Assembly: GCF_022045235.1 (NCBI RefSeq)
Contig: NW_027266275.1
Location: 28,024,001 to 28,088,000, forward strand
DNA: 64,000 nt
Reading direction: 5' to 3'
Source: Haliotis cracherodii
Lineage: Eukaryota
Positions 8,701 through 48,790 of this stretch are shown piece after piece; position 1 is the stretch's first letter; every line of letters begins with the position of its first letter. The position numbers and the translations under genes were made by a program. Under the pieces are notes generated by a model that searched no databases, was not told the DNA's origin, and worked only from the letters and a program-made list of their open reading frames with translations.

Positions 8701-11700
8701 GCCAAAATACAGAAACGCATGCATTAAATGAAAAACTCAAATGTATAAAAACAGCATGCGTAAATACCCAATGAAGCTTTTTCAGCAAGGGTACAAAGGA
8801 GCTAAGTTCCGAAACACAATTACGAGCTAATTTACTTTCTGAGTCCAGCCTTTATATTTAGAATGGTTATCATGGTTATATACATCTAAAACATTATTTC
8901 ATTTTTTAAATCTTAAAATGTTCACTGTTTTGGGGAAATACCCAAAAGAGTGAAGAATAGATGAGTGAAAAAGTATTGGTTACCCAAAGAAAAATGTAAT
9001 AACCCAATGAAAACAGAAACCCTAGAGTAAAAACTCAATGGCTCAAAAAGTTATCTGGAGCTCTGGGCATGTGAAATATGTATTCCTTGTGACATGAAAC
9101 AGGTTACTGTAAACATGGTAAAGGGACTGCTTGTTAATGTTACTACCATGATTACCAGGTCATTATCCAAATTCTATATGTTCCTTAAGACCACCTCCAT
9201 GGTCTAGTGGAGCGGAAGGTCCGGGAATCAAAACCCGGCGGCATCATACCAAAAGACGTTAAAGTTGGTGCTTCTTGTTACCCTGTCTGGCGCTTGGCGT
9301 TAATGGGCTAAAACAAGGACTAGTTGGCTCGGAGTCGGTATACTGTGTCTGAGTGGGGTATTCATGTTAAACTGCGGCATGGTATCTCAGTGGGCTAGCA
9401 CTATAAAGTAGGCACACACACACACATGCATGTTGCTGTATACATGGTATAAGTGCAATAATCTTAGATGCAAAGTTAAACCCCATTTCAACTCCCCTCA
9501 CCTTATATTTCTTAACTTTGGAGATGTCTCCATGGTCTAGTGGATAGAGCATTTGTCCGGAAATCAGGAGATCGGTGGTTCGATCCCCTGACCGTTTTAT
9601 TCCAAAGCATGTTAACAGATGTTACTTGTTACCTTGTATTTTGGGGATAAAACAATGACTGGCGGGCTGGGAGTTAGTGGTATCTCAGTGGGCTAGCATA
9701 CTAAGACTCACTTAAGTCTGGACCAGAACAAGCTGTTATACACATGCTCCTTCACACTGCTATATAAATGACATTATCTTGAACATGTTGAATGGGATTG
9801 TAAACACCATTTTATCTCATAACTTTTGATATAATAAGATAATATAAAGGGAGATAATCTGTATTTCTTGTGACAATTTCAATAAATTATGTTTCAGATA
9901 TCTAGAAACAAGCCTCCAAGATACAAGTCAGGTATGTGTGTAAAATAAACATTTGGTATATTCTCTTACTATGCTTACCAATATACAAAGTAAAATATGT
10001 TGCTTCACACTGATTGTTTTCAAAGTGGCCACCAGCAGTGTAATGTCCTGGATAATAAAACAGTCTCAGGGCATACAGCATCAATTGTTTTGAGACGGAT
10101 GATTGTAGCTTGTGATGTAGTATCTAGCTCTATGTTAACATGGTTCAAGCAAACAACATGTAATATGTATAGTGACGGTAACGATGTTAAACATCCTGGT
10201 TAATTACAGCTCCTGCTAAGAAAACCAAGAAGACAGGTCGCAGACCAGGTGAGTGTGAAGAATATGTTTGTATAGGCTGCCATGCCACTCTTGTGTCAAT
10301 ATACAAAATAAGATTAATAAATCTTTAATGATTTCTCTGTCATGGCCGGTGGTGATGACAAAAAGAGTGATTACCATCCCCTCAGTATTTTCAAATTTGA
10401 GTGAAATTTACAAAACAATAAATTTGAAGGATTTCTTGTTCCACCTGGCAATAGGGATATTTAGGTTTTTTTATTTTGTATACACGGTAACATTTCAAAA
10501 TTCAGAACTGGATACGAATCATGATCATGATCATAATATTAATCATGATTTCACGATAATATATGATTAAATTCAGATTTGCTGACTGATGGCAACTTGG
10601 ACTTTTTGAACCTGTTGAATAGGTCATTATATCAAAATGAAACTTCTGCACAAATATTTTGTGAATGAATTCGCTAAAGTTTCACTGATTATGAGATCCT
10701 AATTTCCAGGATCTCCAAACAAAGCAAAGCCTAAGCTTGGTAAGGATTTGTGGATGACTGCCATCAAGAAACGACAGACATGTGAGTTTCAGTTGATTCA
10801 ACAATTAATATAGAATTTTATAAAGTTTCANNNNNNNNNNNNNNNNNNNNNNNNNNNNNNNNNNNNNNNNNNNNNNNNNNNNNNNNNNNNNNNNNNNNNN
10901 NNNNNNNNNNNNNNNNNNNNNNNNNNNNNNNNNNNNNNNNNNNNNNNNNNNNNNNNNNNNNNNNNNNNNNNNNNNNNNNNNNNNNNNNNNNNNNNNNNNN
11001 NNNNNNNNNNNNNNNNNNNNNNNNNNNNNNNNNNNNNNNNNNNNNNNNAACGTGCTATTTAACATCACATCAGCATTATTTCAGCCATATAGCGACAGAT
11101 GCTAAACATACTTAATCATTAATCCCATAGTAAATATCAGATACAATATATGCTTAATGTCATAGTTAATACCAGATACTAAGAAGAAATCAAACCAACT
11201 TATAAAATTGTTTTTATGCAACAGAAATTTTTTCATCCACTTAAGAGATTTTTTCACTCCAAAAAGAGCCTACTGCTCCATTGACAAATGGTGAGCAATT
11301 TCAAAATAAATATGATGCTAGTTTGAAAAAAACCTGACTTTGAAGTCAATGTAAATGTATATTCAAAGTGAATGTGTGTGAACAAGGTGATTATAAACAT
11401 GATAAAGGGATTTCCATAGGTGATTTCATAAAATATTATTCAATCTCTAGTGGGAATTGCAAATGGACGCCATCCAGACACCCCTCATCACAAGACTCCA
11501 ATTGAGTTTTGGGTTGACACTCTTCGTAAAACCGGCGTGGGTAAGTATTATTCCATATCTACCACATTCAACTATATGAAGTCTTGACAAAACAAACTGA
11601 TTGCTTAGCAATGTTCTGTATCTTCTGTTCTGGGCACAACAACTCACAACACTGAAGTGACACATTTTTACAACCCTGTCATCATGATTATAGATTCGGG

Positions 11701-14700
11701 GTCGAATAGGTCTTCACCGACCAATGCTTGCCGTAAAGGGCGACTAATGGGATCGGGTGGTCAGACTTGCTGACTTGCTTGATGCATGTCATCATAAACC
11801 AATTGCTGGATCGATGCTCGTGATTTCGATCACTGGATTGCCTGGTCCAGACTCGATGATTTACAGACTGCCGTAAATAATCAAGTCTGAACCAGACAAT
11901 CCAGTGATTGACATCATGAGCATTGATCTACGCAACTGGGATATGCATCAATCAAGTCAGCGAGCCTAACTAACCAATCCTGTTAGTCACCTTTTATGAC
12001 AAGCATGGGTTGCTGCAGACCAATTCTGTACCCGGATCTTCACAGGTCATGACAAGCATGAGGTCTGAAATACTTAGTTTTACCCAAAATCCTTATCATG
12101 CTTATGAAGCATTGAAATGAATAATATTAATCTACTTTTCTTTGATATTTTGTCCTTAGCTTGACTGAGTACTCATGACACTCATAAACAGAGTCGCAAG
12201 TACCCACCCGTGACGGACTAATTCCATGAGTATGATGAGGGATGTGTAGATTATAAAAATTATCCAAGTCGTAAAGTTAGTAGCATTATGTTGTGACTTT
12301 AGTGTCATTACATCCCTGAGCTGGAATTTAGGATATTTGTTGTTATTCATAGTTAGAATGACTTCTGCCATGAATACTAATAATAGTTCTGGAGATAATT
12401 GTTATACTTTTGATACCAGGACATTGGGACTGGTAAGATTTTCAAGAGGTCCATCCTGTTTGTAACCCTGCCAAAACTCAGAAAGGTTCTTGTGGCTTTG
12501 GAGGACTTACTGTTATAGATTTGGATTTTAGGGTTAGGTCAGATCTTATTTTGGTTGGGGACAGGTGATTTTTAATGACTGCATATATTTAAACAAAAGG
12601 AGTGGTTTCCGGTAAATCCAAGTGAGTGAGTGAGTATGGTTTTACGCCGCTTTTAGCAATTTTCCAGCAATATCACAGCGGGGGACACCAGAAATGAGCT
12701 TCACACATTGTACCCATGTCGGGAATCGTATACAGGTCTTCGGCTTTAACCACTAGGCTATCAGACCGCCCAAATCCAAGTGAGAGAGTTTCACGTGTGG
12801 ATGACCCAGCTGTTGACTTGCCCTTGTTTGTGACAGGCATGAGCACAGAGAGTTCAGGAAACGCTATGACAGGTCTGAAGAAGGGCAACGACCTGAACCT
12901 GGCCTACCTCAGCACCAGCCACTACATGCGCCAGATGATGGGGACGGAGAAGCCACGGAGGAACGTGGACGACCCCACAGGTGGGTGATCACTTCAGCTG
13001 TGTCTCTGATAAGTACATGATGGATCTGTTTACAACATTAGACAGTCAGACTTCATTATTCAGACTTAAGATGCATACACAGGATACAGGTAATGTGTAA
13101 AGATAACACATTGCTATTGTTTTGAAGATTGTAAGTGACACACATGCAATGCTATTTGTAATTGCCAACATGGCTCCGAAGAGTTCAGGCACAGAATATA
13201 TGGTTTTCATTCTTTCAAATAATGTAAGAATGATTATGATTGTGGCCTAGTTTTGAGGAGGTGACTCAAAGTGACCCTCTGTTTGCAGCCAAGGCTCATG
13301 CTGGCACCCCAGCATATAAATCCCCAGAAGAATACTATGATGATATCCTGGACTTGAAAAAGGTAGGAGGTGTCTGTTTGGTGCAGATCTATATGATGTT
13401 GACACAAGTAACAGAAGTGGGTTTATTTGGAGCTTTTCAATTTACAAACGCACAAAAACAGATTGAGATGTTTTATTGTAAAATTACTGTGCAGAAAAGG
13501 ATAAATATGAGGTGAACTTAATAAGCCCTGATTATTGTATGAAGACTTTGTGTAAACCTCATGAGGAATATGATTGTTTCCATTGTGACAGCACATCTCC
13601 TCCCTCAGTCAGGACAACTCAACAATGAAGGCAAAAGTGAGACGTCTGGAAGAAGACAATATTAAAAAGGTATCAGTTTGGTCAAGATAACGACATGTTT
13701 TTGTTGTTGAAATGAAAAATCAAACTTTGAAGGTGGTTAGATTTGAATGTTTCTTAAAGAAATGTCATATCTGGTCAAATACAAACCTGTAAACTAGTGT
13801 TACAGCTAACCAGCTATTTTCTATTGATCATGTGATGTTGGTTTGTATACTTCCAGGAGAAGGAGATTGATGGCCTACTACACCCAGAAAAGGTGAGATT
13901 TTGTGGAATTGTATTTCATATGTATACAATTATTACGTTAATTCTTTTCTGAACTTCATAAGCTATTATTAGGATTTAGGAAATACATTTTGCTTACCAT
14001 CAAGATAAGTCCCTAGGACAAGCTGAACATGTCACAAAAACAAAGCAGATACTCATTCACATAAGAAAGGTTTATTATTATGACATCATCTGTGTCTTCT
14101 TGATGATTGGTTGTTTGTGTGACAGAATGAGGAGCTGCGATGGACGATGGGAGATAGAAAACCCGACACTGGTGCAGTCATACACAGCCTTAAGCAGAAG
14201 ATCCTCAAGCTAGAGATGCAGCTCCGAGACAAGGAAGCCTCATATGTGTAAGTGATGATATACAGCGTGTTGTCATGGCAACAAGGAAGCCTCATATGTG
14301 TAAGTGATCATATACAGTGTGTTGTCATGGCAACAAGAAAGCCTCATGTGTAAGTGATCAAATATAGTGTGTTGTCATGGCAACAAGGAAGCCTCATATG
14401 TGTAAGTGATGATATACATGTACTGTCGTTCCCGAGGAGGTAGGCTCGTAAGGGTGCATAATGATATGCAGTGTGTTGTCATTGCAACAGTGAAGGCTCA
14501 TAAGATAAGGGATGATATACTTTGTGTTGTCATGGCAACAAGGAAGGCTTATGACGATTAGTAATGATACGCAGTGTGTTGTCATAGCAACAATGAAGGC
14601 TCCCATGTGCAACTAAGGATTTGCAGTGCATTGTCTCAGACATGGTTTTATGTATAACATATGAAGACATTAATTAAGCATCATGGAATGAGTTTCATGA

Positions 14701-17700
14701 CTAAATGCAATGATGATGATGTTGCAGGAAGCTGGTGAGTGAGCTGAAGACAACGAGGGTGGAGGAGATGAAGATACAGATGGAGGTTCTCTACCAGGAA
14801 CTGCTCCGCTTGCAGAACTCCCACGACACTGGTGCTGACAAATCTAGGTACATCTCACCCTTCAGAAGATTGTTTGCGCGTAAATAAAAGTTATGAGGAT
14901 TGCTTGAATGTGCCTGCGATTGTATATTGAGATTTCGTAGGGTTGCCATGTTAAATATATAGCTTTGTGACATTATCTTATCCATTCTCAAGGACTATAG
15001 GAGATTAATAGCAGGTACATGTCATCCTAAGGGTAAGGTCACTGACTGATGTTTGTGTATGACCTCCATTTGGTAAGGCCACTGACTGATGTTTGTGTGT
15101 GACCTCCATTGGGTAAGGCCACTGACTGATGTTTGTGTGTGACCTCAATAGTGAAAGGCCGCTGATCGATGTTTGTATGTGACCTCAATAGTGAAAGGCC
15201 ACTAACTGATGTTTGTGTGTGACCTCCATCGGGTAAGGCCACTGATTGATGTTTGTATGTGACCTCAGTAGTGAAAGGCCACTGACTGATGTTTGTGTAT
15301 GACCTCAATAGTGTAAGGCCATGGACTGATGTTTGTATGTGACCTCCATTGTGTGAGGCCACTGACTGATGTTTGTATGTGACCTCCATTGTGTAAGGCC
15401 ACTAACTGATGTTTGTATGTGACCTCCATTGTGTAAGGCCACTAACTGATTTTGACCCCCAAAGGATAAGACCACTTACTAATAATGTTTGTATGTGACC
15501 TCCAAAGGACAAGGCCACTAACTGATAATTTGTATATGTGACCTCCATAGGACAAGGCTACTGACTAATGTTTATGTGTGACCTCCACAGTGCAAGGCCA
15601 CTAACTGATAATGTTTGTATGTGACCTCCATAGGACAAGGCCACTAACTGATAATTTTTATATGTGACCTCCATAGGACAAGGCTACTGACTAATGTTTA
15701 TGTGTGACCTCCACAGTGCAAGGCCACTAACTGATAATTTTTGTATGTGACCTTCATTGGCTATGGCCAGTTACTGATGTTTGTATGTGATCTCCATTGT
15801 GTAAGGCCACTAACTGATAATGTGTGTATGTGACCTCCATAGGTTAAGACTACTAACTGATAATGTGTGACCTTGTGACCTTCATTGTAGGTCAAGAGCA
15901 GTCTGTAGTTTGTTCATGATGTTAGTGTGTCATGTACTCCGTCCTTCACCAGGGATAAGCTAAAATCTGTCTGAGGTAGTCTGATGTAAACACATATCTT
16001 ATGCGTGAAAAGTGAATATGTGAAACTGATGATAACAGTTGTAGGTCATGTTCAGTAAACCATAGGGAAAATCATACCTTGGTATCTGTGTAAACATTAT
16101 GCCAAACAAACATATGGAATACTAGAGTTTTCTTTAACAAAACAATCAACAAACAAGGATTAACATTTGTCTTTTAGATCGGGAAAGGAAAGTGGTGCAA
16201 AGGTGAAGGCGCTGAATCAGACTGTGCTTCGACTCAGTAAAGTCAACGAGCAGCTGCAGTCAGAGAACAAGGGGCTGAAGGAGGACCTAGAGAAGGCCCT
16301 GGAGGAAACTGATGAGGCCCCATCAGGCAGACGTAAGTACTGGGGGCACATAAGGCAGACGTAAGTACTGGGGGCACATAAGGCAGACGTAAGTACTGGG
16401 GGCACATAAGGCAGACGTAAGTACTGGAGGCACATAAGGCAGACATAACAGGGGGCACATAAGACAGACGTAAGTACTGGGGGCACATCAGGCAGATGTA
16501 AGAACTGGGGGCACACAAGGCAGACGTAAGTACTGGGGTCACATCGGGCATATGGAAGTACTGGGGCACATTGGGCAGATGTAAGTACTGGGGTCACATC
16601 GGGCAGATGTAAGTACTGGGGGCACATTGGGCAGACGTAAGTACTGGGGGCACATCGGGCAGATGTAAGTACTAGGGGCACATTGGGCAGACGTAAGTAC
16701 TGGGGGCACATGGGGCAGATGTAAGTACTAGGCGCACATTGGGCAGCCGTAAGTACTGGAGGCACATTGGGCAGCCGTAAGTACTGGGGGCACATGGGGC
16801 AGACGTAAGTACTAGGGGCACATGGGGCAGACGTAAGTACTGGGGGCACATGGGGCAGCCGTAAGTACTAGGGGCACATTGGGCAGACGTAAGTACTAGG
16901 GGCACATTGGGCAGACGTAAGTACTAGGGGCACATTGGGCAGCCGTAAGTACTAGGGGCACATTGGGCAGATGTAAGTACTGGGGCACATTGGGCAGATG
17001 TAAGTACTAGGGGCACATTGGGCAGACGTAAGTACTAGGGGCACATTGGGCAGCCGTAAGTACTGGGGCACATTGGGCAGCCGTAAGTACTAGGGGCACA
17101 TTGGGCAGATGTAAGTACTGGGGCACATTGGGCAGATGTAAGTACTGGGGTCACATCGGGCAGATGTAAGTACTGGGGCACATTGGGCAGATGTAAGTAC
17201 TGGGGGCACATGGGGCAGATGTAAGTACTGGGGCACATTGGGCAGATGTAAGTACTGGGGGCACATTGGGCAGATGTAAGTACTGGGGCACATTGGGCAG
17301 ATGTAAGTACTGGGGTCACATCGGGCAGATGTAAGTACTGGGGCACATTGGGCAGATGTAAGTACTGGGGCACATTGGGCAGATGTAAGTACTAGGGGCA
17401 CATTGGGCAGACGTAAGTACTAGGGGCACATTGGGCAGACGTAAGTACTAGGGGCACATTGGGCAGACGTAAGTACTAGGGGCACATTGGGCAGTCGTAA
17501 GTACTGGGGCACATTGGGCAGATGTAAGTACTGGGGTCACATCGGGCAGATGTAAGTACTGGGGGCACATTGGGCAGACGTAAGTACTGGGGGCACATCG
17601 GGCAGATGTAAGTACTAGGGGCACATTGGGCAGACGTAAGTACTGGGGGCACATTGGGCAGACGTAAGTACTGGGGCACATTGGGCAGACGTAAGTACTG

Positions 17701-20700
17701 GGGGCACATGGGGCAGATGTAAGTACTAGGCGCACATTGGGCAGACGTAAGTACAGGGTGCACATTGGGCAGCCGTAAGTACTGGGGGCACATGGGGCAG
17801 ACGTAAGTACTAGGGGCACATGGGGCAGACGTAAGTACTGGGGGCACATTGGGCAGACGTAAGTACTAGGGGCACATTGGGCAGATGTAAGTACTAGGGG
17901 CACATTGGGCAGACGTAAGTTCTGGGGGCACATTGGGCAGACGTAAGTACTAGGGGCACATTGGGCAGACGTAAGTACTGGGGGCACATTGGGCAGACGT
18001 AAGTACTGTCAAGCAGTAGTGAGTAGAAGTGTGGGGGGAGGCACATCAGTAGCAGAGAGTACATGATGATACAGCAAGTCACAGCATCAGAAGCAGCTTC
18101 AACTTTCGAAGGAGGTGGAAAGGGGTTCAAATGCTAAAAAATAATGTTAAGTTGTGAAGTAGGAGATAACACAGGGTGTTTTCTGTTGTTACTAATGATA
18201 ATCGATCAAGGTTGTTTATCATTTCAGGAGAGTACGAGGACATGAACAAGAGACAGTTGCTAGTAGCAATATCTAAAGCAGAGCGGGTACGTCAAAACAG
18301 TCATCCCAGACTTCTGTCACAATTCTCTAGTCCAATGAATTGCGTTGTTTTTGTCCAAAGGTTCATTTCTCAAAGAACTATATTATGCCATTCTCCCAGC
18401 TTACCAAACATTGTCTTAATTCTTGTCCAACAAGTGTAAAAATTTGGAAGCCCTCTCTAAAAAGATTAATGCTATTATTGCCAAATTAAAACTGGTTGTT
18501 ATGGATTTGTGGTTACTGAAAATCAGCGGTTCAATAACCCAAGTGAGTCGGGTCTGATCTTGAACTCTCCCAAGCGATATCTCCTGTGGGAGCCAGTTTT
18601 GGATGATAAATGTTAATCCTTGTTTGTCAGGACACAAGTAGATTATGTGGATCACAGTGTTAATACTTAATGTTTGTGTGCAGAGAGCAGAGCGGGCGGA
18701 GAGGAAGGCGGAGGCGGACAACACCTCCATGTTGTCTCTAGACAGTCGGCGCAGTGAAGTCCAGGGTACGTTCACTATCTGTAGAACCTGGGCCCCGTTC
18801 CACAAAGCGATCGTAGCACTACGACTGTCATAAGCCTATGCTAAAGAATGGGAGTTACGATCATCTTAGCGCTACGATCGCTTTGTGGAACGGGGCCCTG
18901 CTTGTGTTTGCAGGGTGATCAGCAACTGCTGTTCTGTTTGCTCTAGGAAACAGGAAAAAACCATCATGAAGCTACATAGATTGTATATTGAACAAGTATT
19001 TCTTTGTGTCATATATATATATCTGCAAATTGAAAACAACTAATATCACCTAGTTCTTCTTTTTCCAAAACAGGAATTGATACCAATTTTGATACCAATT
19101 AATTGGTGGTGTAACGATGCGGCAATACAGTATTGTATCGCAATATGAGGCCCATAATACAATCGATTGACGAACCCTGTATCGCGATACATACGATACA
19201 TTTCTATGCAAGTTATTTTGCTGTAAAAACGTGAATTATAACAGTAACAGCTCAACAACTAGCTTGCACAGATTGTCCAGTATTTCCTGGTTAGCTATAA
19301 ATAGCATAACAGCATAACATTCACAGTGCCTTCTCGCCTTTATGTTTCTGCACTACAGAATCCCATCTTCGATCTCTGAAATGTAGAAACATATGATTCA
19401 GGGTTGTGATTCACCTGCAAAAAGAAAGAATACCAACTGTATAAAATAAAAGTAATTTATCGCGATATGAATCATATCACACCCATAGTATTGAGATGCA
19501 TATTATATCGCGACCCCACTGTATTTCTACACCTCTGCAGTTAATGTCATATTTATGTCATCCCTGTCTATGTGTGTCCAATGCACACTGTGTAACAATG
19601 TGATGTCCTGCAGGCAAGATTGTGCTCCATGGCAGCATGGAAGAACGGTTGCACCAACTTGACCAGAGAGAGTCAGAGCTACTGGATGAAATTGAGAAAC
19701 TCAAGGTGAAGGTCAGGAGGCTGAATAACGAGATGAGCAAGAAAGGGTATGTTCTTTGATATTGACTTGTACTTGTAAACCTCCTTGCACTATGTTGTTG
19801 CATCTGTTGATGTTGATACTTTTGCATGCTACAGTATAGTCTTGGATCTCTGGCAGTTTTAGCAGCAACAGGAACGATTTAGGTGAAAGGGCATTATCAG
19901 TGATTCATATTGGGAAAGGGAGGTCACTCTAATTACAATGTGGAGCTATTTCCATTGTTTATTTGTTTTTGGAAAATGGTGTTAGTCTCGCAAAACGTTT
20001 TTGTAGTTCAATATATAAATTCACCATCTTATTTTGCAATGTTCGTAGAAGTGAGTTCTGCTGTACTTTCTACAAACTTTAATATTCCAATCCAATAATT
20101 CAGGAAAGTTACATAATTATATTTACAAAATAGTATTTTGTAGTACAGGTTTTTGGTGGTAGTGCATGTTCCCTTCCACAAGTGAGTTTAGTTTTGAATG
20201 TGGGTCTACCTTGCACGTACACTTAGGCAAGCAATGTTAGCTCCCTTCTCACACGACTAATAATATGGTTTCACCGAGAATTGTGCTTTATAAGAAAGTA
20301 ACATGCTACCACCTGTCCCACTATGACATAGAAGCTCTACTCAAGTTTTGTGTTTTAAAACAAACCGCATTAGAACAAGCCATTTTCATTTCAATGTGTT
20401 ACCATTACTTGTTTTATGCCATGCTTGTGACTAGCATTCTTTGCTGGGATTCCTCATCAACAAATTATTATTCTCACTGTATCATTTCAGCCGAGATTCA
20501 TCTGGTACACCAAGACGGCGGGACTCCCCCACTGGTGTGACTCCAAGAAGGCGCAGGTAAGATTATATGTGTGCTGGTCATTTTCTCGTCTCATGGTTGG
20601 CTACGCCAGAAACCTATGATTGTGGGTTCGAATCCCGGTTCGCCCTGATTATGTTTCTAGGTTTGTCAGCACCATACCCGTGCTCATGGGTTTCCCCGAA

Positions 20701-23700
20701 GTGGTAAACATCTGAGACCTGCATCACTTCGGGCTTTCCTCCCACATTAAGCTGACACGCCGTGATATAACTGGAATACTGTTAAAAGCGGTGTTAAACC
20801 CAACTCACTCACTCACTCGTCTCCTGGTTAATGTTTGTTGGTATCTTGTGTTGGTTGACCTGGAACTATAGATTCAGCACTGTCCAAATCTCATGTGTAC
20901 AGTCTTTTTGTTCCAGATCATCCTCAATAGACTCAGGCAGAGAGACAAATGTCCAGAGTTTTTCACAGAAAAAAGCCGCCAAAAGTATTCAGAGGCAATG
21001 GCGTCAGCATCGGGAGAAGAAACGTGAAGAAGAAGAGGTAGGGTAGACAACTCTGCTCTTGTAGTGGACACATGCATGACATCGTCTCCTGTTCTGTAAA
21101 CATTCAGATTATGTCAGTAATGCACAAGACCTCTCCTTTCACCTAAGTTTAAGATATAACTTTTCATCTGAATCCTTTTCTCCCATATCCAGTATCTCTT
21201 GCATGCATGCACAAAACTATCAAAATAAGAATTCACAGATAGGAAATATCAAAGTAATGTGATCATCCAAATGTGGCACTCTGTGTGATGTGTGGTGGCC
21301 TGCATGTGAGTAGCAGGGCCAGTGATGTCCACAGTCCGTCTGTCTCTACCTATCTCTGTTCTGTCCTCATGTGTCTAGAGATTAGCTATTCGAGTCGAGG
21401 AGATGCGTCGAACCCATGCGGCTCGGACAATACAGCGGAGGTGGACCAAACATCAAGGAGAGACCGAGAGAGTAGGACATTTCCCCGAACATGCTTAAGC
21501 TGTTGTCACATGTTATGCCGGTGTTGTGTCCGTGTTGTGTCACTGTGCTGTTACTTGAGTCACCAGTGTGGTCACCTGACGCGCCTTCCCTTTGCCTCGC
21601 ACTGCACCTGCATAGTGTTGATGAGCAGTGTAGTCACTGCCCGAAACACACACACACCATCAGTGATACCACCTCCCTTGCTTGCTGTGCATTGAATTAC
21701 TGCACCAATGTGTCTACCTTGCACCGATGTCCTGGAGCTGCGTTGCTTATCATTGCAGTGTTTGTATGCGACTGCACTCCGGTTATCAGTTCTCACACAC
21801 ATGAAACTCGTGAAACACATACATTGGTCTCAGATGTCACAATTTGCTGGGCAGAGTTGCTCTCTTATCCCTGCCAGCTGGTTGTGGTTCAAATCCCAGG
21901 TTCGTCCGGAGTATCATCCTTTGTTTGCTTGCACCATATCGATGTTCCTTGGTTTCACCAAGGAGTAAATGTCTTACGACCTGCATCTCATCAGCTGACA
22001 CACCTATAATTGACATACTGCTCACCTAACAACTCATTCATGTACATAAGACTTTGGTCTAATTATAGGTGAAAATACTCTCTCCCTTGTCTTCCTACAT
22101 GAGTGGAACACATTGACTGACATTTCCATTTAAATACATGAGTTAGTTTGCTGAGAAAATACGCACACCATCTGCGTGAAGTTTGTTTCACAGAACAAGT
22201 TGCATGATGGAATCACTCTCCTGACTGTACAAGTACCATGTGTGTGCAAGTTCTGTTTGATGACCTGTTGGATGCTTGAACATGCTATTTGTTACCCTGA
22301 CCTGTCGCACAGCTTGGTGTTGGAGGCTGACATAGACAAAAGCTGATGTCAGGAATTAAGGAGATGGGTCGGGCCGAGATTGAGGTCAGAGCAATAAGGA
22401 TGATGGGTTGGGTCAAGATTGAGGTCAGAGCATTAATGGAGATGGGTTGGGCCAAGACTGAGGTCAGAGCAATAAGGATGATGGGTTGGGTCAAGATTGA
22501 GGTCAGAGCATTAAGGGAGATGGGTTGGGTCAAGATTGAGGTCAGAGCATTAAGGGAGATGGGTTGGGCCAAGACTGAGGTCAGAGCAATAAGGATGATG
22601 GGTTGGGTCAAGATTGAGGTCAGAGCATTAAGGCAGATGGGTTGGGTCAAGATTGAGGTCAGAGCAATAAGGAGATGGGTTGGGCCAGGATTGAGGTCAG
22701 AGCATTAAGGGAGATGGGTTGGGTCAAGATTGATGTCAGAGCAATAAGGAGATAGGTTGGGTCAAGATTGAGGCCAGAGAAATCAGGGTGATGGGTCGGG
22801 TCAAGATTGAGGTCAGAGCATTAAGGCAGATGGGTTGGGTCAAGATTGAGGTCAGAGCAATAAGGAGATGGGTTGGGCCAGGATTGAGATCAGAGCATTA
22901 AGGGAGATGGGTTGGGTCAAGATTGATGTCAGAGCAATAAGGAGATAGGTTGGGTCAAGATTGAGGCCAGAGAAATCAGGATGATGGGTTGGGTCAAAAT
23001 TGAGGTCAGAGCATTTAGGGAGATGGGATGGGTCAAGGTTGAGGTCAGAGCAATAAGGATGATGTGTTGGGTCAAGATTGAGGTCAGAGCAATAAGGAGA
23101 TGGGTTGGGTCAGGATTGAGGTCAGAGCAATAAGGAGATGGGTTGGGCCAAGAATGAGGTCAGAGCATTAAGGGAGATGGGTTAAAGGGTTAGAAGGTAA
23201 GCATAATGAACATGATCTTTTGGGTCAAGGGGTCAATAGTGTGGTGTGTTGGATCCTGAGGGATTCAAGTGTCTTGACCAGGACAAGGAGTAGGAGTCTG
23301 TTGCTTCAGTAGCCATCAGCAAGAGGCAGCAGCTTCTACTGTTGTACTCAGCTTGGTCTGTGGTATAGGGCTGTCTCCTCAGTACAACACATATACCATT
23401 TAGTGATAATATGCACGTCAGCATACATATTCTCAGAGCTACAGATAAGCTGCATATGAGCATAAAATACCCCCCAAAAGTATTCAAAACCCAATCACTT
23501 TCAATTAACTTGCGTACATAAACGCATACATTAAATGAAAATGAAGCTTTTTCAGCATGCATACAATGGAGCTAATTTCCGAAACACAATTTCGAGCTAA
23601 TTTACTTTCCCAGGCAAGACTATATATTTAGAACAGTTATATACATCTAGAACATTATTTCTTTAATTTCTTTTTTAAGTCTTAAAATGTTCACTAATTT

Positions 23701-26700
23701 GGGGGAAAACCCAATCGAGTCATGAATAGATGAGTGAAAAAATACTGGTTACTGAATGAAAAATGTAATAACCCAATTAAGATAGAAACCCTAGAGTAAA
23801 AACTCAATCGCTCAAAAAAGTTATCTGGAGCTCTGTATTCTGCAAGAAGAATAGGAATAAACTTTTTCAATTTGTTGTCATGTCTTTATATATTTAGTTT
23901 AATAATCTTTGTTTCTACGAATGACTATTAACCTTGACTATACAACTGTTTCTACATCACTGTTTTTATCATGTGAACTGTTATGACACCCTATGTAAGT
24001 TAGGACATTCTATGTACATTATGACACCCTATGTAAGTTAGCACACTCTATGTACATTATGACACCCTATGTAAAGTGAACAACATATGAGCAGTGCACC
24101 GTGGCATCAACAGTAAAAGCCATTGTCTATTCAGTTTTGAATATGAAAAATGTCCATGCTCCATCCAGTAACCTGCCAGACGGGCCATGTGCTTCCTGTT
24201 TGGCAGCTGGACATATTCCCATTACGATGCCATATGTCGTTCACGTCTGTATTTATGCATGGTTTATTTTCTCGTCTTACTTTTGTCTTTGGTGTCCTTT
24301 TGTGATCAGATGCACAATGTGAACAAATTCCGTGAGAATCACGCAGCAAAAGCTATCCAGGCCAGATGGCGTCGACATCGCCAGGACGAAGAGGAGGATG
24401 AGGAAGTAGGTCGCAGGCTCACTGAACGATAACTGTTGGAAACACTGTGCATTGTGATGCATAGATATGGTTGAGGTTGTCTCAGTCTGGGCTTGGATTT
24501 CTATGGTTGTCAAAGGTTCCTGTACTTGAAGTCGATAGAACATCGATAAATGTGATAAGAGCCTAGTGTAATGCTAGCAAGGCAAGATGTTGCTTTCATC
24601 CAAACTATCAAAATGCACAGCTATTTAGCTATTGTTAGGGTATGCATCTTCTGTGAAAATTTCCATAGAATTCCAATGTTACTTTTCTGTTCTAGTTAAA
24701 ACATGACTCTCAAAAGATTTTGGTTTAAAATGTAAAACTGGAAAGTAATACCTCTCACAAGATTACTAAGAAATAGCAGGATACCCTTAAAACAATAGGC
24801 AAAAATGGCAGTTGGTTTATAAAAGTCTTGATAAGCGCTATGCTTTGTACATGGGAACCAGTTATTTTGCTGAAAGGGTTGCTGACAAATTGAGCTAAAA
24901 AATGTTTGGGTTCTTGAGTTTGGGATTATGGTAAATCCACCTTTCCAAGTAGCTGGTCCTAAAATCTTCGGTAATGTTTAATGTGTATGGGTAGTAAGTC
25001 AAGGCGTCGGATCACGAAAGCATGTTCACTAACCTGTGGTCGTGCATGCACTGATGTTTTGCTTTGGAACGTGAATAATGCAACATTTGTGTGTAAGACA
25101 ACTGTGTGTTTTTCTGTCTCTTCTGTCTGTCATTCTTGTCTCTCTGTCTGTTGTATCTGATATGCCCAGTGTATATACCTCCAGTATACAGTCGTGCAGA
25201 ACAGCATGAGTGTCATCGCAATGAAGGTGACAGTTGTGGGTGTTGCAGTCGTCACTGTGAAGGTGACATATCAATGACAGTAGTATTGCAAGGAGTGTGT
25301 TGTCTTGGTGACCTGAGTACTGTAATTCCTACATTAAGAGCCCAGGATACCGTTGTACAAATTGATGTTAGTGCTAAGGTGATTGTAACTCCCATGCCTT
25401 AACATAGACTTGTGACAGTCGTAGCTCTACGGTTGTTTTGTGCAATGGCACCCAGCCTTTGATAACCTGTTTACTATTGAACCCAGCCAATAGAGTATAG
25501 CTCTTTTTGAGACCAGGGGCCACTGGCACAAAGCGATCTTAGCCCTACGGTGATCGTAACTACCATAGTTTAACATAGACTTACGAGGATCGTAGCGCTA
25601 AGATCACTTTGTGGAATGGACCTTGGACCTTATTCCTTGTGTCATGAAGGTACAAGGACACCTTTGTTCCAATATAATTTATTGCATTGAATGTAAGAGG
25701 GATACTCATTAGCTGAAGCTGACCTAGCCCTTATTTTACTTACGGCTCTTATTTCAAAGTCTTGTCCCTAGACCAAGGTCTTAGTTGTTTGGGGAATGTA
25801 CGTCAGTCTTGATTCCGAAGTAGAATGGCGGACCTCATTACACCATGTTTGATGTAAGTCTTCAAAACTGGTGATCGATGGTAACAGTGTTGGAAGTTCA
25901 TATTGCATGTAACAGTACCTGGTGAATCACAGCTCTTGTTATCAAGCACAGGTTTTTCTGGTCCAGATGAATTTCCAGGCTGCCATGATACAGCTGCAGT
26001 ATCACTGACCACTGCATGAGCAATACTGTCACTGTGTTAGTATTGATCTATTAAGGAGATTTGAAATAGGTGACCCACCAGGAGATAAGGGACCTTATGT
26101 GTGAAACATCACATTTTGACTTAAATATTTTTTTTAAACCACAGTTTTTAAAAAATTAAAAAATCAAATAAAAAAAAATCATAGCTTCATTTCATATTTG
26201 TTACAGAGATACATGGACTCAAACATTTGGACTCATTTTCTGAAAACTGTTTATGTAAAGATTGCAGTTTTTAGGTATAATGTCTGAATAATTGAAAGTA
26301 GACATATGCTGAAATGTTTTGAAATAATGTTTTTATTACATTGCGAACTAATGGGAGAAAACTAAGATATTTTTGTGCAGTCCGCACACATGGCGATTTT
26401 TGCGGAAGTAAGTTGACATGACTTCTTTCTTTATGACGTCACAGCACAATTGTTTCCTGGCACCCATAAAGTCCCTTTTCTCCTGTCCTATGACTTACCG
26501 GTATGTCATAATGCAAGTAGGTTGTATCCAGTTGAGTGGAGTCGTGGTATTTGGTATCTACACGAGGGGTAAGGTGTTTGAGGAAGCAATATCTTTGGTA
26601 AAATATTTAAATTATGATATGTTAAATGTTTGTTTGTTTTTTAATGTGCTGATTTAATGTGTCTAGAGATGGATGGTACATCTATGTGAAGGAGGGTAGA

Positions 26701-28425
26701 CTAGTGGCTCAGGGAGCATCAAGATGAGGTGAATAGTATCGGACTAAAAATATCAAAGAGCACTGTTTGTTTTTATGTGCTGCTTGTTGGTATTTCTGTC
26801 AATGTTACAGACAGTTATGGTTTTTATATCAAATCAAACATACCAAATGTATTACAAAACAGAAAAATCTTATTAGGAAAAGATATTAGGAAGTTCTCAC
26901 AGGAAGGTTTTTTTTGGAAATTTTAGGCAGCATACGTTATCCAGTCTGCCCTCCGAGGACATCATCAACGGCGACAGAAGCTGAAGCGATATCAAGATGA
27001 TGATTATGACGATGAGGAGGAGGCAGACTACAGCACAGGAAGTGATGATGCTGTCTATTTGATTCAGTCTTCCTTGAAGGGCCATTCAGCTCGCCGACAG
27101 AGAATGATGAAAATGAGGTAAAACAGCATCCTCGATTGTCTTGTGTTATATTTCCATTCTATCATGGATACAATATCTAATATGATATGTATTCAGTCAT
27201 GAGGCAAGTGTATTGTGATGCTTATCATGTTTTCAGCATAGGGCTAAGGGACCATGCATTGTTTCTTTCTAGGGGATGTTTATCCTGTCATGAGGCAAGT
27301 GTATTGTGATGCTCCTAGCGTTTTCAGCACATTGCCTAAGGGACCATTCATTGTATCTGTTTAAGGGATATGTATCCTCTCATAAGGCAAGTGTATTGTG
27401 ATGCTCCTAGCGTTTTCATCACATTGGCTAAGGGACCATTCATTGTATCTGTTTAGGGTATATGTATCCTGTCATGAGGCAAGTGTATTGTGATGCTCCT
27501 AGCGTTTTCAGCACATTGGCTAAGGGACCATTGATTGTATCTGTTTAGGGGATATGTATCCTGTCATAAGGCAAGTGTATAAGGCAAGTGTGAACCCTCA
27601 TATCATGATTTCCTTGTTTTAGACTGGATTCAACAGGGGATGAGGATTATGATGATGAAGGTCCCCGTGGTCACACTGGCCAGAGGTACTCAGGTTCTCG
27701 GCGACCGTCATCGGGTATGAAACTTTCTTCTTTTTTTATGATGATAACACGTGGTATGAAATATACCATATATATAGCTGAATTTTGAGATACATTAATA
27801 GTAAACGTGGTAAAGACAGAATGTGACTTTAAGATCCTGTTTGTAAATATGCTTTTGGTCTTTCAGCTCATTCTCGGGGAAGTTCGGTAAAGGTAAGCAA
27901 GACCAGTTCATCATGGTTCATCTCTCTTAACTATTCTACAAAGTCTTTTTAGAAACTTCTTTGTGGAAATAGGTCTTCAGCAACCCATTAATGTCGTAAG
28001 AGGCAATTAATGCGATCGGGTGGTCAGGCTTGTTGACTTGATTGAAGCATGTCATCATATCCCAATTGCATGGATCAATGCTCATGATGTTAATCACTTG
28101 ATTGTCTGGCGCAGACTTGATTATTTACAGACCACTGTCATATAGCTGGAATATTGCTGAGTGCTGCGTTAAACAAAAAACCCAAAACCAAACATATCTA
28201 ACAAAATTATTTCGCCCGTCACCAATTGCAATCTGACTTCCACAATAGTAAAAATTTTGGTATTAATTTGCTCATTAGTGACGAGAAGAACAAACTAACA
28301 AACTAACAAACAAATCAAGCAGAAGTACAGGATTACAATGTTTCTTATTATTACAGAAAACGTACGCCACATACCCCAGCTCACGTCAAGCAAGTATGGA
28401 CGATGATGATGACATCATAACCTGA
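3730..28425 (+). CDS. IQCE: IQ domain-containing protein E, 24 predicted coding exons, ~687 aa
   Basis: Phase-consistent GT-AG exons: 3730-3747, 8575-8628, 9898-9931, 10210-10248, 10710-10781, 11451-11540, 12837-12980, 13289-13362, 13592-13669, 13857-13892, 14126-14247, 14728-14847, 16178-16332, 18228-18286, 18684-18765, 19614-19746, 20491-20556, 20917-21037, 21379-21471, 24310-24405, 26927-27117, 27623-27714, 27867-27892, 28357-28425(TGA). GTPAYKSPEEYYDDILDLKK, MKAKVRRLEEDNIKKEKEIDGLL, KPDTGAVIHSLKQKILKLE and LKTTRVEEMKIQME match the IQCE coiled-coil core. IQ motifs IQSALRGH and IQSSLKGH and the C-terminal DDDDDII are present. The 5'-most exons are least certain, and an exon could lie in the N gap. 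Confidence 0.9.
4259..4637. mobile_element. Tc1/mariner-type MITE (CCGTATT termini); second copy at 56451-56773
   Basis: TIRs ccgtatttgacataataag / cttattacattgaatatgg after TA. The interior matches 56451-56773 in reverse orientation. Confidence 0.8.
4981..5207. mobile_element. hAT-like MITE (CAGTGTT...AACACTG termini)
   Basis: TIR cagtgtttgaaata / tattttgaacactg; the end resembles that of the element at 40643-41838. Confidence 0.65.
5672..5724. repeat. (TA)n microsatellite at a SINE tail
   Basis: About 26 TA units directly abutting the SINE 3' end. Confidence 0.95.
5725..5948 (-). mobile_element. SINE family A (non-tRNA head GACCCGTGAAGATCCGGG...)
   Basis: Reverse complement matches the full copy at 54292-54570. 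Confidence 0.85.
7218..7340 (+). mobile_element. SINE family C (tRNA-Leu-like head), 5' fragment
   Basis: Similar to 60976-61100; B-box gggttcgaatccc. Confidence 0.7.
7894..8072. mobile_element. pogo/Tigger-like MITE
   Basis: TA|CAGTAAAC...GTTTACTG|TA, with internal gttcgttata subterminal repeats. Confidence 0.7.
8652..9065. mobile_element. MITE with 15-bp TIR CAGAGCTCCAGATAA; second copy 23434-23835
   Basis: Perfect TIRs; two ~400-bp homologous copies in the window. Confidence 0.85.
9193..9815 (+). mobile_element. Two tandem tRNA-derived SINEs, family D (other copies ~56965-57205, ~58343-58570)
   Basis: Heads ctccatggtctagtgg with B-box ggttcgatccc; shared core ...gttaccctgtctggcgct...aaaacaaggact...atctcagtgggctagca; tail gttaaaccccatttca. 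Confidence 0.75.
10831..11048. other. Assembly gap (218 N) in an IQCE intron
   Basis: Run of N. Confidence 1.
11692..12048. mobile_element. Two family-A SINEs fused tail-to-tail (inverted pair)
   Basis: A + copy at 11692-11872 abuts a - copy at 11873-12048; both lack tails. Confidence 0.85.
12627..12771 (-). mobile_element. SINE family B (short tRNA-derived, (CTCA)n tail) with 13-bp TSD
   Basis: TSD aaatccaagtgag at 12614-12626 and 12772-12784; matches 54938-55100. Confidence 0.88.
14229..14600 (+). repeat. 52-bp minisatellite spanning an IQCE exon end, carrying splice donors and X-box motifs
   Basis: Unit acaaggaagcctcatatgt|gtaagtgatgatatacagcgtgttgtcatggca; gtaagt at 14248, 14300, 14350 and 14402. 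Confidence 0.9.
15033..15885. repeat. ~40-43-bp minisatellite (~20 copies)
   Basis: Unit gtaaggccactgactgatgtttgtatgtgacctccattgt. Confidence 0.95.
16326..18008 (+). repeat. 27-28-bp minisatellite (~60 copies), each unit containing the IQCE 5' splice site
   Basis: Unit ggcagac|gtaagtactgggggcacattg. The first unit overlaps the end of exon 16178-16332. Explains the minus-strand Cys/Pro-rich ORFs. Confidence 0.97.
18791..18897. mobile_element. PIF/Harbinger-like ~107-bp MITE with CTG TSD (relatives ~25345-25456, ~25514-25625, ~30300-30411, ~42321-42432, ~57774-57976)
   Basis: 27-bp perfect TIR GGCCCCGTTCCACAAAGCGATCGTAGC flanked by ctg/ctg. Confidence 0.85.
19105..19537. mobile_element. Degenerate hAT-like MITE with (atcgcgat) subterminal motifs
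   Basis: Ends ggtgtaacgat... / ...ttctacacctct; gtatcgcgatac motifs near both ends. Confidence 0.5.
20599..20815 (+). mobile_element. SINE family C, 5'-truncated, with 14-bp TSD
   Basis: TSD ctcgtctc(a/c)tggtt at 20585-20598 and 20816-20829; near-identical to 61040-61254. Confidence 0.88.
22360..23183. repeat. 39-bp G-rich minisatellite (~21 copies)
   Basis: Unit gagatgggttgggtcaagattgaggtcagagcaataagg; an internal ~193-bp block is duplicated. Confidence 0.95.
23434..23835. mobile_element. MITE (CAGAGCT..AGCTCTG) with apparent 6-bp TSD
   Basis: tattct at 23428-23433 and 23836-23841; homologous to 8652-9065. Confidence 0.85.
27190..27592. repeat. 92-bp tandem repeat (~4.3 copies)
   Basis: tcat(g/a)aggcaagtgtat recurs at 27197, 27288, 27380, 27472 and 27564. 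Confidence 0.93.
27967..28192 (+). mobile_element. SINE family A, slightly 5'-truncated
   Basis: Matches 54310-54570. Confidence 0.85.
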
Positions 28426-29900: not shown

Positions 29901-30702
29901 CTTGGACTCGTCTCCTGTGGCTTTAAGTTATCTTCTAGCCCTGAACATTATAACTGAAAGGTAGGCTTGGTCATTCAGAATTACTCTTTCCATTCAGCAT
30001 TGGTGAATGTACCCACGACTAATCATTACCTCAAATCAGATGTCTGCTCTTTTTGTCCAGATAGTCCTCTCCCATGTTTGTCCACATACGAGGCCAAAAC
30101 AGAGTGTCGACTCATTGTAACAATTATATTTATATGTAAAATTGCATATATGTAAATTATGCACATGTAAGCAAATATGAGCATGTAAATGAGGTTTGCA
30201 CTTCTTTCAAATGTATTATTTACAGTTTTTATTATGTGTACCACATGTCATGATGTGAATTGATGGATAACCAAACAGATTACTGTCTTGATTTGTACAC
30301 CAGTGCCATTGTACAAAACAACCTTAGTGCTACGACTGTCGTAAGTCTATGTTAAGGTATGGGCATTATGATCACCTGAGCGGTAAGATCGCTTTGTACA
30401 ACGGCACCCTGATATGTAATGAGATGCAATAGTGTTCTTACGTCCATGGTAATTATCCAGTAAACATGATCAGAGGCAGAACCATGGACAAGTGACCAGC
30501 TTGTCACCGTATTGATATTATAAATTTGTATATTTTTATTTGTAATCTACATTGTTTACAAGAGCAACTCTGACTTGGCTGTTTTTAAAGATGTTGAAAT
30601 AGGTGTGCATTTTATGATAACTAATTGGGTAGGGTTAATCTAGAATGTGATTATACACGCACGTAAACAGGACTGTAACAAGCCACTGTGCACTGAGGAA
30701 TC

Positions 30703-30835
30703 GGGCGGTGGGGTAGCCTAATGGTTAATGCGTTTGCTTGTCATACCAAAGGCCCAGGTTTGATTCTCCACGTGAGTACCATGTCTGAAGCCCATTTCTG
30801 GTGTCCCCCACCATAATATTACTGGAATATTGCTT
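30703..30835 (+). mobile_element. SINE family B with 11-bp TSD (duplicate at 42724-42856)
   Basis: TSD actgaggaatc at 30692-30702 and 30836-30846; tRNA A/B boxes. Confidence 0.85.
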
Positions 30836-32451
30836 ACTGAGGAATCACTACGTTATGAGTTGAAGTACTGTATAATGAGGTTATGTATGGGTTTTGAGTA
30901 GATTAAAATTTAACATTGCATTATCAATATTTCAGCCATATCGACATGTGGTATGACATGAATCATGCAGGAGATATATTTTTCTGGCAGTAAGGTTCTC
31001 AAACCATTGTTAGTTTATATAATTGATAAAGTGTATCTGGTACTCAATATGTTTTCCTGGACACACTATTCACCTGTTGATGATTGAATACAGCTGGATT
31101 ATGCGAGCACTTTTCATGCAGCATACCTTCAATCATATCACAACCTTCCTGTGTTGATGCATGTCATAATGTGACAGTGTATTGTTACAGTGCTGTACAA
31201 CAAATACGTCATCTCACATTCCACGAGTCTGTCATTCAGACCTATTCTAGTTCAGTAGTTGCATAGCTTTTAGAACTGATTTACTGACACAATGTCTTGA
31301 TTTTACATGGTGGATTCTGAACTTCTTATATTTTCCCTATTTTTTATGTATTTACACCACTATGGTGCGTTATGTCCATTGTTTATTGGTGGGGTGTTAT
31401 TTTTTGTAACAACCCTGCACATGGAATTGCAGAGACTGGGGACTGGGCCTCAGTTCATGATGTCGTGTAGAGCACTTCGCTTCTAGGCCCATATGGTGTA
31501 TGTGCTTTTGGCTCACTCTTGAAGAGGGCAATAACCTATACATATCCAGCTTGAGGCTGACTGCTCGGTGTTCAGGGCATGACAGTGGAATAGAAGCAGA
31601 CAATATAAAGGAAATTATGTCATCCACAAAGTTGGGACATCCTCAACCTGAAACTGTAATTTATGAAATATCCTTGGTGTCAGTTTCTTGGACTTCCTAT
31701 TAGTATTACCTGGTAGTATCTGAAGCCAGTCAGATGAAGAATCCGTCCATATGTATTAATTTATTTCAAATTGATGAATAGTATTTATTCTCTACTCTTC
31801 GTTGGATTTCTGTACTCCCATTTTGTTGAGAAATTCTGTGATCTTTAATAAATGTTACATAAATTAGCCTTTTGTGTTCTTCTCTTCATTGTGGAGTATC
31901 CCTTCACCTCAACAGTGCCCACTGACAATATTTCAAAAGGATATCTTTCAAGTCTTTTGAAAAGATCATCAACAATGTCTTGACAGTAAATATGATTTAA
32001 TTCATTATCAGAGATTGCATTATGTCCATCTTTTGGCTTATGTACACGGTATTCTTTGTGAAACATCATGTGAAGAACAATGCCATCAACTGTTGGAAGA
32101 CCAGTCATCCATTTTACTGTATACTTACTTTAAATTATTCAACAATAAAATTCAATGAAATAGTTTGTTTTCTTAAACATGATGACATGGATCAAAGGAT
32201 AGTTACAACAGTTTCTTCTGGCAACGTGTGGCAATTTAGGTATACCTAAATATACCAAGATATCACCTCTGAACTGTCCAGATATCCTCATTTTTGGCAT
32301 ATTTGACATCAGCAGTGTGATGCAGACAAAACCAAGTTATGCTGTTTCAGTGAACAGAACACTGGCACCTCACATAACTGCACTGTAGTAAATTGGCATA
32401 GTCTTGTTTCCTGTACCATCTCAAAGCACACATGAACAGATCAAAAACCTG

Positions 32452-35400
32452 TCATGTCCCCACCCCAACACCATCTGCTCCCTCTTCATCCAACAGACCA
32501 AAGGATTTGTACACCTTGTGCTGGCGAGAATTCCGGAGCTTTTTCAAATCATCTGCATACTGTTGTTCTCGCACCAGCTGTCTGCGTTGCTCCTCGAGTT
32601 CGGCCTTGTGTTGGTGCAGCGCCCGGGTCGTCTGTATCAGCCCCAGCAGTTTTCGCCTTAACTGCCGGTTCTCCGTCTTGATCTGGTTTGTGTGTTCCGT
32701 CAGACATTGAGTTGCCTCCTAGAGAAATGAACAAGGAGAAATCATTGACCAAGGTGTTGGACCAGAGCATGCATCTTCAGACACACATAGCTTTACATTA
32801 AAATATATAAATTGAAAAACTGGACACAAATAATATCCAAAGCAAGTTTGGACCAAAAGAGTATGTCTGTTTGAATCATTTAGACTTATTCAATTGTAGC
32901 ATGCAAATAAAGGTCATTTGACAATACCATTCAGATAACAGAATTACTATCAGGAGATCAAAAGATCATCTTCACTCAATCACTGTTTTGTTTTGAACAA
33001 GGAAACCAGTACTTAGACCTCAAGTAGGTCACAGTGGTCAACATGTAACTCCCTAACTCACAGATAGACCACTGTATTGTAATATGCATTGATCTATGGT
33101 TACATTCCACTCTTCCCCGTAAAGATCTGGGTCGGAATAGGTCTTCAGCAACCCAAGCTTGCTGTAAAAGGTGACTGTTTGTCAAGCTCGCTGACTTGGT
33201 TGACTCATGTCATCGTATCCCAATTGCGTGGGTAGATGCTCATGATATCAATCACTTGATCGTCTGATCCAGACTCGAGCAGCGTTTAACCACAAACATA
33301 AAAACATCCCACCCTTACCTTGTTAGCCTTTTTCTCAAGGGTTGTTATCCGAGTTTCGGAGTCCTGCTGGAAGTCATGTTTCTCAGTGAGAAAATTTGAC
33401 TTGAGTTGCTGCATTGTCTCGGAATGCTTGGCACGCATCTTCATCACTTCCTTCTCCAGGTTGCGGATCTTGGTGAGCTGCTCTGTCTGGAGGTCCTGTG
33501 TACACCGATAGAGAGGACATGGTCACTGAATGTGCAGAGGTGTGGGCAACAAGTTGAACTCTTGGATAGGAACAAACTAACTGTAGATCAAACTGCTATT
33601 TCCATAGTTTCAACAATGGTATATCAACTCTTCATACATGTCATAGTTAACCACATGACTTGAATAAATGTATAGTTTATTCCTCCAGTAATACACACGA
33701 GTCAGTGTTCAACACACTTTGAATATAGCTGGTGAGTGACGCAGCCAGTTATACTCTCAAACCCCTGAGTCTGCACAGGATAGTCTCGAACCAATTGTTC
33801 TGGCTTGATACATGACACTTTTTCAGGTAACAAGGTATCTCATTTGATCTGTAACTATTCATACATTAAGACCATGCTATCAGACATGACACATCAAGAA
33901 GTTTGTCATCAAACCTCATTTTTGACATTTTAATCTCAGTGTTTGTTTTGCATAAAGCTGACCTTGTATTCCTGAAGGTCACTCAGCTCCTGCTTTGTCT
34001 TGGTTAGCATATGCTGCTTCTCCAGCCGCACATTCTCCAGGGCTGGACAACAGAAGACACAATATCAGCAACGGAAAACACACAGTGGATATACCAACAT
34101 CAGAACACAGTGGATATATCAGCAACAGAAGATGCACAGTGGATATACCAACAACAGAACACAGTGGATATATCAGCAACAGAACACAGTGGATAACAAC
34201 AACAGAACACAGTGGATATATCAGCAACAGAACACAGTGGATATACCAACAACAGAACACAGTGGATATACCAACAACAGAACACAGTGGATATACCAAC
34301 AACAGAACACAGTTGATATATCAGCAACAGAACACAGTGGATATATCAGCAACAGAACATAGTGGATATACCAACAACAGAACACAGTGGATATACCAAC
34401 AACAGAACACAGTGGATATATCAGCAACAGAACACAGTGGATAACAACAGAAGACACACAGTGGATATACCAACAACAGAACACAGTGGATATACCAACA
34501 ACAGAATACAGTGGATATACCAACAACAGAACACAGTGGATATATCAGCAACAGAACATAGTGGATATACCAACAACAGAACACAGTGGATATACCAACA
34601 ACAGAACACAGTTGATATACCAACAACAGAACAAAGTGGATATACCAACAACAGAACACAGTGGGTATATCAGAAACAGAACACAGTGGGTATATCAGCA
34701 ACAGAACACAGGGCATAACAACAACAGAAGACACAGTGGATATGAATAACAGGAGATGCACAGTGGATATCAACAGAAGACACAGTGGATATCAGCAATA
34801 GGACAAACACTGGATTTCATCAAAAGGAGAAACACTGGATATCAACAACAGAAAACACAGGGGATATCAACAACAGAAGACACAGGGGATATCAACAACA
34901 TGATACAGTGGATATCAGCAACAGAAAACACAAGGGATATCAAAAATAAAAGTGAGGGAAGTAATATACTCTAGATTCTCAGACACTGGTGCATCACAAA
35001 GTATTCCCAAATATCCATACTTGTACAAAAGATATTCCCTTTAGAGAAACAAATAATCTGCTGACCTACAGCTCTCCTAGAAATACATGGGAAACATGGG
35101 AGCTTACAGATCTTTCTAAGGGAGCTTCATGCCTATGACATGTGACACATACTCAGTCCAGTAGTAGTATATATTCTAATTAAATATATAACATCTAAAT
35201 GAAGGGACAACAAAAAATATGAATCTTTATTATAATTCCTTTAGGAAGACATCCCCTTTAAGCCTTGTTCATGAGTCCCAAGACTCAACTTCAATGGCAA
35301 TGTAATCATTGTCTGATTTTGTTCATCTAAATACTATGTTTGATATCATCAAGAGGAAACCGAATCCGAAAAATATCAACATGACTTAGCCTAGATGGCA

Positions 35401-36723: not shown

Positions 36724-36769
<46 letters not shown>

Positions 36770-48744: not shown

Positions 48745-48790
<46 letters not shown>

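Follow-up and report, generated by a model that had tools for sequence, protein, structure and literature searches.

A minisatellite built from an exon-intron junction was found in an IQCE-like gene of the abalone Haliotis cracherodii, within a stretch of 64,000 nucleotides that is referred to here as the window (contig NW_027266275.1, positions 28,024,001 to 28,088,000 of the forward strand). The repeat unit spans the junction, the first of its 5' splice sites (donor 1) is the only one that keeps the reading frame, and spliced contigs use donor 1. We consider it probable that the array consists of copies of this junction in which splicing takes place at donor 1, the remaining donors being carried along inertly as the repeat turns over. 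It is likely to represent a tolerated junction duplication that expanded. The features concerned, numbered from the first base of the window, are as follows.

9898..28420, + strand: IQCE-like gene, placed by tblastn of three Haliotis proteins; the end is approximate, coding exons run from 9898 and the first exon is unmapped.
16178..16332, + strand: coding exon of 155 nt with at least its last 7 bases in repeat unit 1, identified by protein homology and one spliced contig per run.
16326..18008, + strand: minisatellite of 61 units of 27–28 nt, 58 with GTAAGT, the sense strand being G-rich.
16330..16338, + strand: authentic donor GAC/GTAAGT (GT at 16333), identified by spliced contigs and a U1 pairing prediction.
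16362..16364, + strand: in-frame TAA within donor 2, included by donors 3 onward, read from the sequence.
18009..18227, + strand: unique remainder of the intron, 219 nt including the acceptor; a similar flank follows array units in the organism C run.
18228..18286, + strand: coding exon of 59 nt that follows the array intron, spliced to donor 1 in each of the four runs.

An earlier note on this DNA, made from the letters alone, had placed about 60 tandem copies of a genuine donor at 16326–18008 behind the IQCE exon. Tandem Repeats Finder called an array with exactly these limits (period 28, 60.6 copies, 91% matches), and parsing gave 61 units: 48 of 28 nt, 11 of 27 nt, one of 25 nt and a terminal piece of 17 nt. 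Unit 1 straddles the exon-intron boundary, taking in at least 7 exon bases together with the donor, and the closing 17-mer of the array is the same as its opening 17-mer, as the note had also reported. Its statement that nearly every unit repeats GAY/GTAAGT held for 50 of the 61 (28 GAC, 22 GAT), with GCC in a further seven and GTC in one. GTAAGT is kept in 58 units and GT in 59, the damaged donors being those of units 5, 7 and 9. These 58 words in 1.68 kb compare with 24 in the remaining 62.3 kb of the window, a cluster far above chance that is the trivial result of amplifying one site in tandem. The array accounts for 1,676 of the 1,895 nt of its intron, which would be about 230 nt long without it. 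It holds 27 distinct unit sequences in a non-random order; units 1–7 have a tail type of their own, distinct from that of the inner units, and exact blocks of up to 113 nt recur inside the array. On the sense strand, 109 runs of three or more G were counted.

Haliotis proteins mapped about 20 exons within 9898–28398, and 19 exons gave 601 stop-free codons with donor 1 used. The Pfam IQ motif is present in a relative (P0001). When proteins were searched for homology to the exon at 16178–16332, four of 51 candidates passed, and protein identity to IQCE-like proteins was 98% for Haliotis rufescens, 92% for H. asinina and 88% for H. rubra. RefSeq-type proteins of two other Haliotis species cross the donor 1 junction into the exon at 18228 uninterrupted. 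Among the 59 donors that retain GT, donor 1 is the only one to give an open frame. Use of donor 2 would add 28 nt, shift the frame and run into a stop codon 46 nt inside the following exon; the remaining 57 take in the TAA at 16362, which is part of donor 2's own GTAAGT; the note's reasoning that only the first donor is productive was thus correct. As many junctions lie downstream, nonsense-mediated decay (NMD) of later-donor products is predicted. In the H. rubra model (P0003), about 230 unrelated residues stand at the start of the post-array exon between two REYED copies, which may reflect either an insertion that duplicated its target or an error in the gene model.

Splicing was assessed through contigs from four runs belonging to two studies (X1, X2 and X3 from organism A, X10 from organism C). 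The RNA status of the runs is not on record; exon-exon joins show that spliced RNA is present. Donor 1 was joined to the exon at 18228 in all four. One long contig per run (1,759–2,181 nt, depth 12–87) covers the exon, exits at donor 1 and is unbroken at the junction; its alignment extends to 16340 because the first eight bases of the next exon resemble the intron start. Contigs joined from donor 2 or later were seen in none of the four runs, bearing in mind that contigs drop rare forms and collapse the array, and that the stretch used for comparison held only about three array units. Use of the first donor alone, which the earlier note had named as an outcome counting against a role for the array, was therefore observed, at contig resolution only. 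Run X10 gave two further low-depth contigs of array units, one of which crosses the last donor into a 3' flank like that of the window, with a small deletion, and is unspliced.

Arrangements of this kind are known from other animals, and are compared here as far as the consulted portions of the cited reports describe them. In human F7, a 37-bp variable number tandem repeat (VNTR) in intron 7 carries identical donors of which only the most upstream is used; in minigenes each pseudo-site proved functional after mutation of all preceding sites, and even stronger downstream copies failed to compete (PMC1557585). The abalone array shares with it a first unit across the exon-intron boundary, identical intronic donors and a most upstream donor that alone is seen in use. 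The two differ in size, F7 having 5–9 units of 37 nt and abalone IQCE 61 of 28 nt, and F7 has minigene proof of functional copies and known length polymorphism. It is fair to see in the locus a natural test of most-upstream donor choice, as the note did, but that test has already been done on F7 intron 7 (PMC1557585). Further human arrays occur in 6-16 intron 2, CBS intron 13, LMNB2 and PDGF (PMC1557585). The CBS array is a 31-bp VNTR of 16–21 units (PMC1557585; nomenclature and allele range in PMC2630376), and its unit of 24 exon and 7 intron bases is similar in size to the abalone unit and likewise carries the exon end and donor.

In amphioxus, such 'mirages' have been described in Adh3, the globin genes BflGb6 and BflGb9, troponin C and PGBD5 (PMC3087553, PMC3902484), where they leave splicing undisturbed (PMC3087553). 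The abalone arrays resemble them as minisatellite-like boundary copies of a marine invertebrate that occur several times in a genome and in a gene, at donors or at acceptors, with concerted evolution sparing the edges and no visible effect on splicing. Amphioxus belongs to another phylum, its globin arrays have 3–6 units and are smaller than the IQCE array, and length instability has been shown there. The IQCE array agrees with junction-spanning minisatellites of the mirage (F7 intron 7) type in its form, its boundary unit and its retained splice signals, as well as in use of the authentic site (in the dominant form, rare forms being invisible) and concerted evolution with divergent edges. Within Haliotis, intron 3 of a TSSK1-like gene of H. 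discus hannai contains a polymorphic 27-bp array of about 62 units (PMC6905558); it is alike in unit size, copy number and intronic position, and differs in that the consulted portion of the report describes no junction-spanning. Splicing-regulating tandem repeats (spl-TR) are those whose length is associated with splicing outcome (PMC10078293). Our search of open-access literature, a weak negative, turned up neither a description of mirages in Haliotis nor a rate for a whole genome.

A second donor-spanning array lies in the same gene.

14229..14609, + strand: donor-spanning array with a 52-nt unit in 7.4 copies, more decayed.

Its first unit includes 19 nt of the exon ending at 14247, and it holds four GTAAGT sites, one being the real donor at 14248. 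The earlier note had proposed a genome-wide count of tandem repeats that overlap junctions against shuffled positions, and a related count was made for four conserved, unrelated families in genome G000. Exon matches to kinesin, kinase, myosin and SNF proteins, with 1.50 Mb of DNA around them, gave 428 donors (about 139 gene loci) and 366 acceptors (about 132 gene loci). All are computational calls, so that the rate is approximate. SNF matches were taken from 20 of 50 planned regions, a set of 30 intronless kinase loci was used for profile building only, and a tandem myosin cluster and the mostly single-exon AMP-binding family were left out. Minisatellites covered 13% of the sampled DNA (276 arrays). 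A first pass on 190 donors gave seven donor-spanning arrays against 4.3 expected, which was not significant, and the larger sample was taken for this reason.

An automated rule flagged 13 of the 428 donors. On visual inspection twelve were convincing, each carrying between 2 and 83 additional donors, and one (L250) was doubtful. After 26 donor calls deep within arrays, probably false exons, had been dropped, the rate was about 3% (12/402, 95% interval 1.6–5.2%); a high-margin subset gave 6/278 under a filter that penalises repeated donors. The same rule applied to intronic GT sites returned 0.97% (all sites), 1.36% (at least 3 bits) and 2.17% (at least 6 bits, a control that probably contains unannotated real donors). 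Against this strictest control 13/402 showed no clear excess (P 0.10), and with 12 arrays instead of 13 the P values across controls ranged from 0.0007 to 0.17. The excess over chance was 1.5–3 fold, depending on the control. No excess was found for acceptors (4/365 against a control of about 1%), and an asymmetry between donors and acceptors was not established (12/428 against 4/366, Fisher P 0.13). The further donor-spanning arrays, again computational calls, lie in kinesin, myosin and SNF genes (L113, L187, L213, L220, L164, L132, L114, L188, L291 and L286) and reach 83 extra donors. An SNF transporter exon (L235, about 870–2860, + strand) has both an acceptor array with 13 extra sites and a donor array with 28, and the kinesin locus L138 also combines an acceptor array and a donor array.

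Array edges were concentrated around junctions in general, at 0.55–0.69 per kb near donors (−60 to +100) compared with 0.08–0.17 deeper in; within 50 nt upstream of acceptors they reached 0.79 per kb, compared with 0.12–0.34. The over-representation is as strong for arrays that contain no donor and begin a short way into an intron, so the donor-side excess is not specific to arrays that copy donors. On junction association, whose absence the earlier note had named as counting against a role for such arrays, the outcome is mixed. Arrays starting 0–100 nt inside introns were considered as decayed junction copies, and this was rejected, as one of 20 resembles its own exon end. In the window, minisatellites at 27184–27580 and 15030–15861 start 66 and 182 nt past IQCE donors that they do not copy, in agreement with this pile-up.

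If the later donors are inert, the array would be tolerated because the spliceosome takes the first functional donor after the upstream acceptor, by analogy with the F7 experiments. A transcript spliced by mistake at a later donor would contain a premature stop and probably be removed by NMD. The choice of donor 1 may be aided by the G-runs that follow every donor and by its slightly more open structure; other abalone donor-spanning arrays exist without G-runs. In the folding prediction donor 1 had an unpaired probability of 0.59 compared with 0.43 ± 0.11, rank 3 of 61, which is a hint at most of a structure exposing donor 1 alone, and that idea was not retained. A set of points weighs against inert copies. 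The first-donor rule comes from mammalian cells and abalone is a mollusc. Human 6-16 and CBS are spliced at the two nearest pseudo-sites too (PMC1557585), although nothing of this kind appears in abalone at contig resolution. The 13/402 donor-spanning arrays exceed the 0.97% (P 0.0002) and 1.36% (P 0.004) controls. Organism C, with an exon that differs at about 3 of 155 bases, retains at least two units and the same 3' flank, so that the array is not entirely new. Finally, the loss of rare forms from contigs together with depletion by NMD may leave room for leakage from later donors.

Such leakage is the substance of the strongest alternative, in which leaky donor choice acts as an NMD rheostat: some transcripts would be spliced at donor 2 or beyond and degraded, and the length or sequence of the array would set the level of IQCE. 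That 58 of the 59 GT-bearing donors are unproductive suits this proposal, as do the identity of units 2–4 to donor 1 across −7 to +10, the 35 of 61 sites that share its predicted U1 energy, and the use of nearest pseudo-sites in the two human genes. The uniform contig evidence for donor 1, with main contigs intact at the junction, left the decoy or rheostat role put forward in the earlier note unsupported. Stronger downstream copies did not compete in F7 (PMC1557585), and leakage confined to the nearest copies should leave total array length without effect. We regard a rheostat as unlikely.

Less probable still, and in our view improbable, is a selected exon-definition enhancer, in which repeated U1 sites and G-runs boost a middling donor. 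Donor 1 does lack a G at −1 and scores 5.5 bits in the matrix trained here, which is biased to consensus sites, and G-runs 3' of a donor, of which the array has many, are splicing enhancers in human cells (PMC6344860). Its predicted U1 pairing (−7.1 kcal/mol) nevertheless ranks 11th of 21 in the gene, the median, and array-bearing donors show no weakness relative to the rest (median 9.5 against 8.2 bits, P 0.54). Across 59 aligned units, changes numbered two in the donor columns (+1 to +6), none at the non-donor columns +15 to +18 and one at −7 to −4; as donor columns vary as little as adjacent ones, nothing points to selection acting on the copies, and the enhancer suggestion of the note gains nothing from conservation. 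A G-quadruplex driver was rejected as weak, with no canonical motif at loops of up to 12 nt and a mean G4Hunter score of 0.85.

U1 telescripting is the basis for a third proposal, that U1 loading by the array shields the transcript from premature cleavage and polyadenylation. The 58 U1-complementary sites within 1.7 kb speak for it, but the 1,895-nt intron contains no AATAAA or ATTAAA (the nearest stand at 14883, 18485 and 19445; AATAAA density across the gene is 0.49 per kb) and would be short without the array, making a shield very improbable. An assembly artefact, in the array itself or in its length, can practically be set aside: local assembly error is possible in a window with a 12,023-bp tandem duplication of 100.000% identity, but the distinct unit sequences in non-random order and the array units with the same 3' flank in the independent organism C run argue against it. 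The duplication (30105–54148, where 30105–42127 equals 42126–54148) has a minus-strand DUF4515 coding stretch near 32452–32718, and is either an assembly duplication or very recent.

For the copied junction with a single working donor, growth in place is indicated because the unit pattern is limited to the array in G000: a search for it elsewhere in that genome found none, all 30 exact matches lying in the array, although a blank search is not proof of rarity. No look-alike stretch was found in the other genomes compared, and the unit does not behave as a dispersed or mobile repeat family present at other loci. A candidate source was noted in the sequence.

16308..16342, + strand: candidate ancestral duplicated segment, with ACTG at 16308 and 16339, 31 nt apart.

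An origin from the segment between the two ACTG words is weakly suggested. The alignment of unit 6, picked by eye, with exon positions −24 to −8 has a score matched by 5 of 428 other exon ends, and a later-type unit shows no special alignment with the exon end (267 of 428 others score as well). Intron birth by duplication, considered from the likeness of the intron start to the next exon start, was rejected, as 53 of 366 other exon starts score equally. The array may have begun when a short segment spanning the junction was duplicated in tandem, perhaps between the ACTG words, with later expansion and homogenisation by slippage or unequal exchange in which edge units lag; the distinct edge units and internal exact blocks fit such concerted evolution.

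Both the arrangement and its splicing outcome are already published for human and lancelet genes, and the single locus adds little. The new element is the rate estimate of about 3% of called donors in four conserved families. By extrapolation to the introns of a whole genome, this would mean thousands of arrays per genome, and it implies robust first-donor choice in a mollusc despite dozens of identical competitors at 28-nt spacing. Donor-spanning arrays can lead gene prediction astray, and they supply many natural settings in which splice-site choice can be tested. A more far-reaching reading, unlikely as a whole, is that abalone carries thousands of junction-born minisatellites, formed or retained near donors at 2–3 times chance and more often than across acceptors, and that at loci such as IQCE later donors leak into NMD, so that array length tunes expression. 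If so, abalone populations would test first-donor selection naturally across the genome, and their repeats would give rise to variation in expression.

Some minor observations were made alongside. A short interspersed nuclear element (SINE)-like interspersed element lies in an IQCE intron at 20603–20818 of the window, with thousands of matching contigs per run. On contig C12 of G000, at least about 15 myosin-head genes stand in tandem at 64.6–65.9 Mb, and six near-identical intronless kinase copies lie about 1.6 kb apart at 28.406–28.415 Mb. Contig C74 of the same genome (L046, L066) has full-length kinesin and kinase matches running through many TAA and TAG codons, as in a ciliate-type code, and is possibly a foreign contig in the assembly.

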